Assembly (NCBI GenBank): GCA_902801685.1
Contig: CADCIZ010000001.1
Span: forward strand, 1 to 60,610
DNA: 60,610 nucleotides
Reading direction: 5' to 3'
From: an uncultured Erysipelotrichaceae bacterium
GTDB lineage: Bacteria; Bacillota_I; Bacilli_A; RF39; UBA660
This document shows positions 11,663 to 12,693 of the stretch, one piece after another. The position numbers and the translations under genes were made by a program. Position 1 is the first letter of the stretch. Each line of letters begins with the position of its first letter. The notes under the pieces were generated by a model. The model was not told the DNA's origin and searched no databases. It saw only the letters and a program-made list of their open reading frames with translations.

Positions 11663-11685
11663 CTCTAATTTAGTTCTAATTAGAG
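11663..11685 (-). promoter_or_regulatory. 8-bp-stem hairpin overlapping the target stop codon, 23 nt 3' of the VR GC-rich end
   Basis: CTCTAATT (11663-11670) and AATTAGAG (11678-11685) with a 7-nt loop. TCTAATT recurs 3 times in 11644-11670. Confidence 0.5.
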
Positions 11686-12693
11686 TGCAGACTTAGAGAA
11701 TGTTACAACTGGGCGAACGACGCCATTCCAGTAATTCCAAACCTCATGAGCAAACACATAACCATCATAGTTAATATCCCAGACACGACGAGCCTCATCT
11801 TGATATGGACTCATTGTCCAATAATAGTAATTACTATTGTAAACCCAACTTGGTGTATTTTCGTTATTAAGATTTATATATGTTGCATCTTTAGCAGCAG
11901 GTTCATATCCTAAAGAAGTTGTTAATTCTTCATATGTTAAAAGTCTTGCTTTATATCCAAATTTGTCGGTTGCTAAATCAGACTGAGTTAATTTATCATT
12001 AGCCCATGCATCTACGGCAAATTTAATATCAGAGTCATCATAATCACTTGTACATCCAGTCTCAGCACCTGATTTACACGTATCACTACTATAGTAAGTC
12101 ATTCCACCATAACCATTAGAATTATACGCAACACCTTGTGATGAAGTTGTATATCTATTAATATGTCCTGCACCATAAGTTGTTACTTCATCTACTGTAA
12201 GTGGAGTTTCTTTAAGTGCAGTTACTGATGCCTCTTTTGCACCACTTGCACTTACTACATAGAATTTCATTCCTTTGTATGTAATTTCATCTCCTACGTT
12301 ATATACTTTATACGATGGAGACTTATCAGTTCCATATACATATCCTTCTACAGTTCTATTTTTTACTGTACACCCAGCAAGATATACTGATGAATCTGGA
12401 TTAATTTGTGTAGTTTCACAAGATACTGTATCTCCTGAATATTCAATTGTTAATTGAGATACTTCTGTTGGAAATTTACCTGTATCAAGTAAATACCCAG
12501 CAATTGCAAGTTCAATACTTCTTCCATACGCATCAACACTTCTCTTATCAGCTGCAATTCTAGCCTTTCTAATAATGTTCATAACTAAAGGTGTTACTAT
12601 TAAAGCGATTATTGCCATAATTACGAGTACAGCAATTAACTCGATTAGAGTAAATCCTCTAACTTTTCTTTCTTTTACCTTTTCAATTTTCAT
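11680..12693 (-). CDS. DGR target protein: type IV pilin/pseudopilin-like N-terminus fused to a lectin-like C-terminal variable domain
   Basis: Class III signal peptide: KVRG|FTLIELIAVLVIMAIIALIV, with Gly at -1, Phe at +1 and Glu at +5. The C-terminus YYYWTMSPYQDEARRVWDINYDGYVFAHEVWNYWNGVVRPVV carries the VR. Confidence 0.85.
   Translation of the reverse strand: MKIEKVKERKVRGFTLIELIAVLVIMAIIALIVTPLVMNIIRKARIAADKRSVDAYGRSIELAIAGYLLDTGKFPTEVSQLTIEYSGDTVSCETTQINPDSSVYLAGCTVKNRTVEGYVYGTDKSPSYKVYNVGDEITYKGMKFYVVSASGAKEASVTALKETPLTVDEVTTYGAGHINRYTTSSQGVAYNSNGYGGMTYYSSDTCKSGAETGCTSDYDDSDIKFAVDAWANDKLTQSDLATDKFGYKARLLTYEELTTSLGYEPAAKDATYINLNNENTPSWVYNSNYYYWTMSPYQDEARRVWDINYDGYVFAHEVWNYWNGVVRPVVTFSKSAL
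11709..11795 (-). repeat. DGR variable repeat (VR) at the 3' end of the target gene
   Basis: 73 of 87 positions are identical to the TR. 12 of the 14 mismatches fall at TR adenines. The shared 3' end GTCGTTCGCCCAG is GC-rich and IMH-like. Confidence 0.9.

Follow-up and report, generated by a model that had tools for sequence, protein, structure and literature searches.

The literature already describes diversity-generating retroelements (DGRs), targets with a DUF6273 domain, pilins of modular build, and type V pilus tips that a DGR diversifies. We analyzed a 60,610-nucleotide (nt) stretch of DNA, the window, from an uncultured Erysipelotrichaceae bacterium (contig CADCIZ010000001.1, positions 1 to 60,610, assembly GCA_902801685.1; GC content 27%), which carries a complete DGR whose target gene encodes a protein with a type IV prepilin N-terminus. 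The closest characterized systems are the type V pili of Bacteroides, in which the tip adhesins BfrT, BthT, and BunT are diversified by DGRs (bioRxiv 10.1101/2024.11.15.621889). The initial annotation of the window, made from the sequence alone, knew of no characterized DGR with a pilin target; the Bacteroides work had already provided one. DUF6273 is a C-type-lectin-like DGR target in which the variable repeat (VR) makes a surface beta-hairpin (PMC10743442). Modular type IV pilins are represented by Streptococcus sanguinis PilB, which has a vWA module, and PilC, which has a lectin module (Raynaud et al. 2021, PMC8179133). A DGR target on a type IV pilin appears to have been noted in passing only, in one line of a survey's domain list that gives a GspG-type pilin among DGR target domains (PMC11661182); that single entry probably refers to the same kind of protein, a DGR target with a prepilin N-terminus, and offers nothing on structure, genomic context, family, or machinery. 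A literature search, with most subscription journals outside its reach, returned no paper pairing "diversity-generating retroelement" with "prepilin", and none of the returned titles and abstracts on type IV pili concerns a DGR-targeted type IV pilin.

The DGR consists of the target gene, a MutS-like (MSL) accessory gene, an Avd accessory gene, a reverse transcriptase (RT) gene, and a template repeat (TR), all on the minus strand. The target open reading frame (ORF; 12693..11680) encodes a 337-amino-acid (aa) modular prepilin. It exists as first described, with an exact translation that begins with MKIEKVKERKVRG followed by FTLIELIAVLVIMAIIALIV and has the C-terminal stretch YWTMSPYQDEARRVWDINYDGYVFAHEVWNYWNGVVRPVVTFSKSAL. 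The MSL gene (11492..11040, 150 aa) matches Pfam MutS_I with 29.4 bits (cut-off 20.6). The Avd gene (11058..10711, 115 aa) matches Pfam bAvd with 47.5 bits (cut-off 40) and NCBIfam DivGenRetAVD with an E-value of 2.6e-13, a match that falls short of the curated cut-off of that profile. The RT (10739..9531, 402 aa) is intact, matches Pfam RVT_1 with 63.8 bits, and contains the motifs LGCVSSQ and YMDD. The TR (9488..9402) lies directly 3' of the RT gene, and adenine accounts for 30 of the 93 bases scanned, mostly in AAY codons. MSL is a described accessory class that occurs with avd ("Architecture D", Wu et al. 2018, PMC5758913); the small MutS-domain-I-like gene, avd, and RT on one strand show no substantial difference from that arrangement.

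The VR (11795..11709, minus strand; aa 300-329) is an 87-nt direct repeat with 84% identity to the TR. Changes from TR to VR occur mainly at TR adenines of AAY codons, converting asparagine to D, Y, F, H, or G. About 14 changes are at adenines and two are not (codons 318 and 322; GTC to GTT, and the T in TAT to TGG); the latter may be ordinary drift or occasional non-A misincorporation. Each conserved end of the repeat occurs only twice in the window, compared to about zero occurrences expected by chance. The placement of the VR in the C-terminal domain, and with it the identity of the gene as the DGR target, was therefore correct in the initial annotation. Inverted repeats span the target stop codon just 3' of the VR (11643..11697), with 8-nt perfect arms (CTCTAATT/AATTAGAG) and 75% complementarity over 20-nt arms; these are possibly a DGR target hairpin or a terminator.

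The 12 closest database homologues of the target (89-98% identical), which come from other samples, differ from it almost only at aa 306-324, at positions templated by AAY codons. The element, or close relatives of it, therefore undergoes diversification in nature. Some strains that share the syntenic locus have a split (258 and 142 aa) or truncated (263 aa) RT ORF, with target, MSL, and Avd intact (L077 11991-13211; L078 7511-8731; L079 11960-12751). The DGR appears to be decaying in some of these strains, while the RT in the window is intact. A phage or mobile-element origin was considered and rejected, since the locus is found among housekeeping genes and is syntenic in several strains. The DGR is a chromosomal, cellular element.

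The N-terminus of the target is a class III (prepilin) signal. The short basic leader (aa 1-13, MKIEKVKERKVRG; 12655..12693, minus strand) ends in Gly-1, with predicted cleavage after Gly13, and is followed by FTLIE, which provides Phe+1 and Glu+5. The protein scores above the cut-offs of both Pfam N_methyl (30.1 bits, gathering cut-off 21.2, E 3.3e-7) and NCBIfam TIGR02532 (27.6 bits, cut-off 16.3), with matches covering aa 9-33. In an alignment of 109 homologues, F14, T15, and E18 are invariant, as are Cys92 and Cys108 of the pilin module, and the residue at -1 is G or A throughout the prepilin family. A relaxed G-F-x-x-x-E scan of the window in six frames returned only the target, a second ORF at 19256..18354, and one stop-broken frame. 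A profile search of PDB sequences returned 20 matches, 19 of which are pilins or pseudopilins, all aligned over the N-terminal helix (profile positions 3-78); these include MshA (E 1.7e-5), GspG (2.3e-4), PilE1 and PpdD (E 0.003-0.02), and geopilin. The textbook prepilin signal proposed in the initial annotation, with Gly at -1, Phe at +1, Glu at +5, and a hydrophobic helix, is thus well founded.

Structure prediction divides the target into a pilin module, a linker, a small beta-hairpin domain, and a C-type-lectin (CLec)/DUF6273-like head. The mature pilin module (aa 14-122; 12328..12654, minus strand) comprises Phe+1, Glu+5, the alpha-1 helix, and a predicted beta-sheet head. The helix spans residues 16-71 (56 residues) in both AlphaFold2 models. 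The full-length model, built with the 109 homologues, has a pLDDT (predicted local distance difference test score) of 82, with the small pilin head at lower confidence and aa 125-337 at 85-97. A separate model of the pilin module (first 128 residues) has a pLDDT of 86.8 and shows four strands after the helix, two of them short and the others at 90-97 and 103-110. In Foldseek, the top matches of this model are pilins, at E-values short of statistical significance. AlphaFold2 thus predicts each of the two modules well separately, which supports a predicted two-module architecture.

The C-terminal effector module (aa 123-337; 11683..12327, minus strand) is predicted to contain a CBM5/12-like beta-hairpin at about aa 128-150 and a DUF6273-type C-type-lectin-like domain. 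In the model, the VR covers strands 303-307 and 313-317 and the loop to residue 328. Foldseek comparison with BFVD matched phage DUF6273 proteins (E 2.7e-6 to 1e-2, probability 0.99-1.0), receptor-binding proteins, and one DUF1566 protein (probability 0.8). Comparison with the PDB matched the T. ramosa IgA peptidase (9qa6, E 2.4e-4), EgtB weakly, and, over a short segment, CBM5/12 chitin-binding hairpins. The N-terminal domain of the T. ramosa peptidase is annotated as DUF6273 (PMC12402451). In sequence, the match of the target to DUF6273 (PF19789) is 19.0 bits, under the gathering score of 23.5; a PF19789 match is precomputed for several homologues. The initial annotation had suggested a C-type-lectin-fold or DUF1566-like scaffold. 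The predicted head is a CLec-type DGR scaffold, but it is DUF6273-like rather than DUF1566-like. In the profile searches that were also suggested, N_methyl is above its cut-off and the ComGC and GspG equivalogs are under theirs. The proposed structural comparison with Mtd and TvpA yielded the CLec/DUF6273 fold for the C-terminal part, but neither protein is among the top 50 PDB matches listed, where the full-length query was dominated by multi-domain noise.

The C-terminal module is not restricted to pilins. In a library of representatives at 50% identity, it occurs without the pilin N-terminus in four to six tandem copies in proteins of 800-1200 aa. The target is therefore a modular pilin as defined by Raynaud et al., a pilin module joined to a separately folding domain that is found in non-pilin proteins.

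The target resembles several known systems and differs from each of them. Like BfrT, BthT, and BunT, it has a C-type-lectin-fold head that a cellular DGR varies and that is fused to a pilin-type carrier. As in the Bacteroides system, it is one of many pilins in a gut anaerobe whose genes are scattered and form a large family, and it is proposed to be a variable pilus-tip adhesin. In Bacteroides, a diderm, the carrier is a type V (FimA-like) pilin that has a lipoprotein signal and assembles by strand exchange. The carrier of the target is instead a predicted type IV prepilin (class III signal, alpha-1 helix) in a monoderm Bacilli lineage, and it would need a prepilin peptidase, an ATPase, and a platform protein. 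The target has no lipobox or FimA-like N-terminal domain, only the class III prepilin signal and an alpha-helix, and no type V pilin structure is among the top 50 PDB matches listed for the full-length protein or the 23 matches for the pilin module. Like S. sanguinis PilB and PilC, the target has a small N-terminal IPR012902/N_methyl pilin module, a short linker, and a bulky binding module in a monoderm, and tip display is predicted for all three proteins. Unlike the architectures named in the text of Raynaud et al. (PMC8179133), the head of the target is DUF6273/CLec-like and hypermutated by a DGR. In addition, its family has at least 12-34 genes per genome, compared to one or two minor pilins encoded in a pil operon. 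The head shares its fold family with the phage DUF6273 DGR targets (tentaclins, tgt2; PMC10743442; best Foldseek probability 1.0). As in those and other CLec targets (also Mtd and TvpA), the VR is at the C-terminal end of the domain, in a beta-hairpin and loops, and the TR is rich in AAY codons. Those heads, however, are carried on phage tail or Ig-like scaffolds or on lipoproteins and not on a prepilin module.

The target belongs to an expanded family. A paralogous pilin gene at 19256..18354 (minus strand), overlooked in the initial annotation, encodes a non-diversified protein of 300 aa that shares the DYWTMS...VRPV scaffold and has a near-identical prepilin module. Two ABC-transporter genes and an AAA-ATPase_like/PDDEXK_9 gene occupy the 5.7 kb between it and the target, and its product has a weak CBM_5_12 match at aa 122-140. 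A second VR in the paralogue was considered and rejected, as neither conserved TR end matches there. Homologues number 1908 in 90% clusters, nearly all of 300-350 aa with PF07963, and 271 clusters were recovered at E<=1e-30 from the 50% representative library. In the species-representative genomes, family members occur in only a few metagenome-assembled genomes (MAGs), all uncultured, low in GC, and labelled Erysipelotrichaceae, Bacillales, or Bacilli. Four MAGs (RUG12438, CAMKGA01, CAKPFG01, and CAMJTE01; loci L001-L075) contain ORFs with a near-identical prepilin N-terminus; the counts in four MAGs are at least 26, 34, 23, and 12. These counts are lower bounds; many of the ORFs lie no more than about 100 nt from the end of a contig, a pattern suggesting that the repeated pilin module breaks assemblies and that the true counts are higher.

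Some members of the family encode only the pilin module. These pilin-only genes (122-144 aa) end exactly at the start of the linker of the target, so the target can be regarded as a pilin carrier with a grafted head, and the short genes are candidate major pilins. Targeting by DGRs recurs in the family. At least five family members, from three MAGs (L001, L020, L004, L067, and L034), carry an adenine-biased TR/VR pair, and MSL also adjoins the target in L001, L004, and L020. The DGR in L067 acts on a 490-aa pilin with a different C-terminal module, and its RT is only 39% identical, which indicates that two DGR lineages target the pilin family. The L067 pilin (113-1585) belongs to a second modular type of 479-500 aa, also found in L059 and L061-L065, which has the same N-terminal module, an apparent head duplication, and a different C-terminal domain ending in GVRPSLYLVSNIKIDSGEGTEQSPYQLSL. 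Three pilin-like proteins of 345-358 aa (L064 16331-17380 and 17427-18464; L027 3434, minus strand) have KAFALVE or KGFTTIE N-termini and share a conserved C-terminal domain ending in CYYNQGTGEFLYG; these are possible minor pilins with a further module.

Candidate machinery for assembling a type IV filament was found in the closest genome of the collection. The initial annotation reported no prepilin peptidase, PilB/PilC, or ComG genes in the window; this agrees with motif scans, tblastn searches with E. coli HofB and HofC, and Pfam scans of 27 window ORFs, none of which detected pilus machinery. It also reasoned that the machinery must be elsewhere, and Peptidase_A24, T2SSF, and T2SSE proteins are indeed encoded by RUG12438, a congeneric rumen MAG and the closest genome in the collection. 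RUG12438 has a syntenic DGR-pilin locus (L001) with a target 91% identical to that of the window and syntenic DNA 82-87% identical. In L008 of the same MAG, a Peptidase_A24 gene (3017-3775) and a T2SSF-like protein are next to a family member, and L064 encodes an 877-aa T2SSE ATPase (13615-16248, minus strand). By tblastn, the T2SSE ATPases in L064 and L026 are 40% identical to E. coli HofB (E 1e-84 and 1e-92). The neighbours of the L064 ATPase gene are a 496-aa family pilin and two other ORFs (345-349 aa) that are pilin-like. The ATPase has the usual core of about 400 aa and the Walker A sequence GATGTGKTT, followed by a roughly 480-aa acidic low-complexity tail that is unusual among PilB/ComGA proteins. 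T2SSF and Peptidase_A24 (A24_N_bact, Peptidase_A24) were confirmed by Pfam in L058, and counterparts of both are also present in L035. In L058, the PilC-PilD pair is followed by a Wzy_C (O-antigen-ligase-like) gene (9865-11277) and then by a 124-aa pilin-only gene (11318-11692); the Wzy_C gene could encode a pilin glycosylation enzyme of the PilO/TfpO type.

The sampled sequence (window plus loci) comprises roughly 1.2 Mb. PROSITE-type T2SSE and T2SSF patterns returned nothing in this sequence, and a Walker-A pattern returned ABC transporters only. The motif-based absence of the ATPase is a false negative, because the tblastn search with HofB found it. ORFs of the size of PilB, PilT, or PilM beside the paralogue (19466-24904) and in L058 and L035 were rejected as machinery genes on the basis of their Pfam identities, which are AAA_14, acetate kinase, LysRS, DnaG, RpoD, NAGPA, and VanY.

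Based on these results, the target is probably a peptidase-processed modular type IV pilin that presents a DGR-diversified DUF6273/CLec head on a type IV filament, with the tip as its probable location; we hold this reading with modest confidence. A prepilin peptidase whose gene lies elsewhere in the genome would cut off the leader after Gly13. The mature module, with Phe+1, Glu+5, the long alpha-1 helix, and a disulphide-containing beta-sheet head, would then place the target in a type IV filament that an ATPase of the PilB type and a platform protein of the PilC type assemble. The filament tip is the most likely position, because the C-terminal part is bulky. A short linker would join the pilin carrier to the CBM5/12-like hairpin and the DUF6273-type C-type-lectin-like head. 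The DGR, comprising MSL, Avd, RT, and TR, would transfer the TR, by way of a cDNA made with errors at adenines, to the final 87 nt of the lectin domain and randomize about 12 surface positions on the beta-hairpin and the loop after it. The head would thus change in ligand specificity while the rest of the pilin stays constant. The data themselves establish the DGR with its adenine-biased TR/VR pair, natural variation of the VR, the prepilin signature, a predicted build of two modules, and a peptidase, platform protein, and ATPase in a congeneric genome, whereas we infer cleavage, polymerization, placement at the tip, a role as adhesin, and the kind of ligand.

Several observations weigh against a filament-borne adhesin, and some of them fit a membrane-anchored surface lectin, in which the pilin-like N-terminus, cleaved or not, is a single-pass anchor and no filament is polymerized. 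The 60-kb window lacks pilus machinery, and the evidence for machinery comes from a congener with only 82-87% identity in syntenic DNA and not from the genome of the window itself. The relatives do not keep the ATPase, the PilC-PilD pair, and most family genes together in an operon; these are dispersed, and the family genes are mostly unlinked to machinery genes, which fits an anchored protein. To our knowledge, at least 12-34 mostly modular genes per genome far exceeds the number of tip subunits of any known pilus, and a family of this size is a better fit to a repertoire of surface proteins. The occurrence of the same C-terminal module in large non-pilin surface-type proteins points the same way, and simple membrane anchoring of a binding protein is the usual prediction for cellular DGR targets (PMC8144416). 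An anchor without a filament is the main rival reading, though a less likely one. Glu+5 is strictly invariant together with Phe+1 and Thr+2, and a buried charge at this position is hard to explain for a plain anchor. A buried Glu+5 charge is required for pilin assembly. Moreover, the relatives retain a prepilin peptidase, a platform protein, an ATPase, and pilin-only genes with an identical module.

The type of filament is a further difficulty for a long adhesive pilus. The best NCBIfam matches of the N-terminus are the equivalogs GspG (38.6 bits, E 9.5e-10) and ComGC (30.6 bits, E 2.8e-7), which would be expected if the target were instead a pseudopilin, a periplasm- or wall-spanning subunit of a short competence (Com-type) or type II secretion (T2SS)-like pseudopilus. 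Both scores are far under their cut-offs (88.85 and 75, respectively) and cover only aa 12-84 of the 337, so they do not single out a filament type. In the sampled 1.2 Mb, we saw no PilT-type second ATPase for retraction and only one T2SSE ATPase per sampled genome, which suits a short pseudopilus, and the host belongs to a monoderm Bacilli lineage. Com pseudopili are common among monoderm Bacilli. On the other hand, no operon of the comGA-to-comGG style was seen in the sampled loci, the ATPase is flanked by pilin-like genes of 345-349 aa and a 496-aa family member, and it is hard to see what a hypervariable lectin head would do in DNA uptake or secretion. A pseudopilin is thus improbable. Finally, the N_methyl profile has only 27 positions, and the Foldseek matches of the pilin-module model to solved structures (led by C. 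difficile PilA1, Neisseria pilins, PilW, and EpsG; E 0.9-9, TM score 0.28-0.36) lack statistical significance, so an ordinary signal or transmembrane segment might resemble a prepilin by chance or through an annotation artefact. That explanation is barely credible, given that curated cut-offs are passed in two libraries, that the motif is conserved in more than 1900 homologues and is common to the pilin-only genes beside PilC and PilD, and that pilins and pseudopilins dominate the PDB profile search.

A broader proposal, which we consider tentative and close to evenly balanced, is that a lineage of uncultured low-GC Bacilli from rumen and gut displays a large genomic library of modular pilins with lectin heads on a type IV filament, which would act as a general platform. 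In each genome, the library would comprise the at least 12-34 mostly modular family genes, one or two of them under DGR control, with the two unrelated DGR lineages contributing to a repertoire of tip adhesins that is both combinatorial and hypermutable.

The genes surrounding the DGR provide some further context. Directly upstream of the target is an AAA-ATPase_like and PDDEXK_9 gene (12923-14569, minus strand) that is present in multiple copies (75-82% identical); copies are again found beside family pilin genes in L041, L049, L020, L070, and L043. Just downstream of the TR are two unannotated genes (6566-8314 and 8410-9204, minus strand) whose position is conserved in L001, L077, and L079. 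The first encodes 582 aa of low complexity, rich in Asn, with a single transmembrane segment; the product of the second is secreted, has 264 aa, and carries a glycine-zipper transmembrane segment at its C-terminus. A sortase, a sub-threshold T4SS_pilin match, and a TraG/VirD4-type coupling protein (45061-45807, 51210-52376, and 55973-58117, minus strand) could together be what is left of a conjugative element; they have no relation to type IV pili. A 310-aa Dockerin_1 protein (3479-4414, minus strand) is placed near the locus by synteny with L077 18332-19264. Together with the cattle-rumen sample names of the assemblies, this protein points to a rumen, cellulosome-associated habitat.

If the target is indeed assembled into a type IV filament, this would be the first DGR shown to diversify a pilin of this type and the monoderm counterpart of the Bacteroides type V system, and a new and very large class would join the modular pilins. 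The pilin carrier, the DUF6273 head, and the 4-gene DGR together form a compact natural scaffold for engineered display. The expanded family raises the question of how one machine chooses among dozens of subunits, and whether switching of paralogue expression complements DGR mutagenesis. Hypermutable pilus adhesins would then have arisen independently on the type V systems of Bacteroidota and the type IV systems of Bacilli, which would indicate strong selection in the gut and rumen for variable binding with an extended reach.

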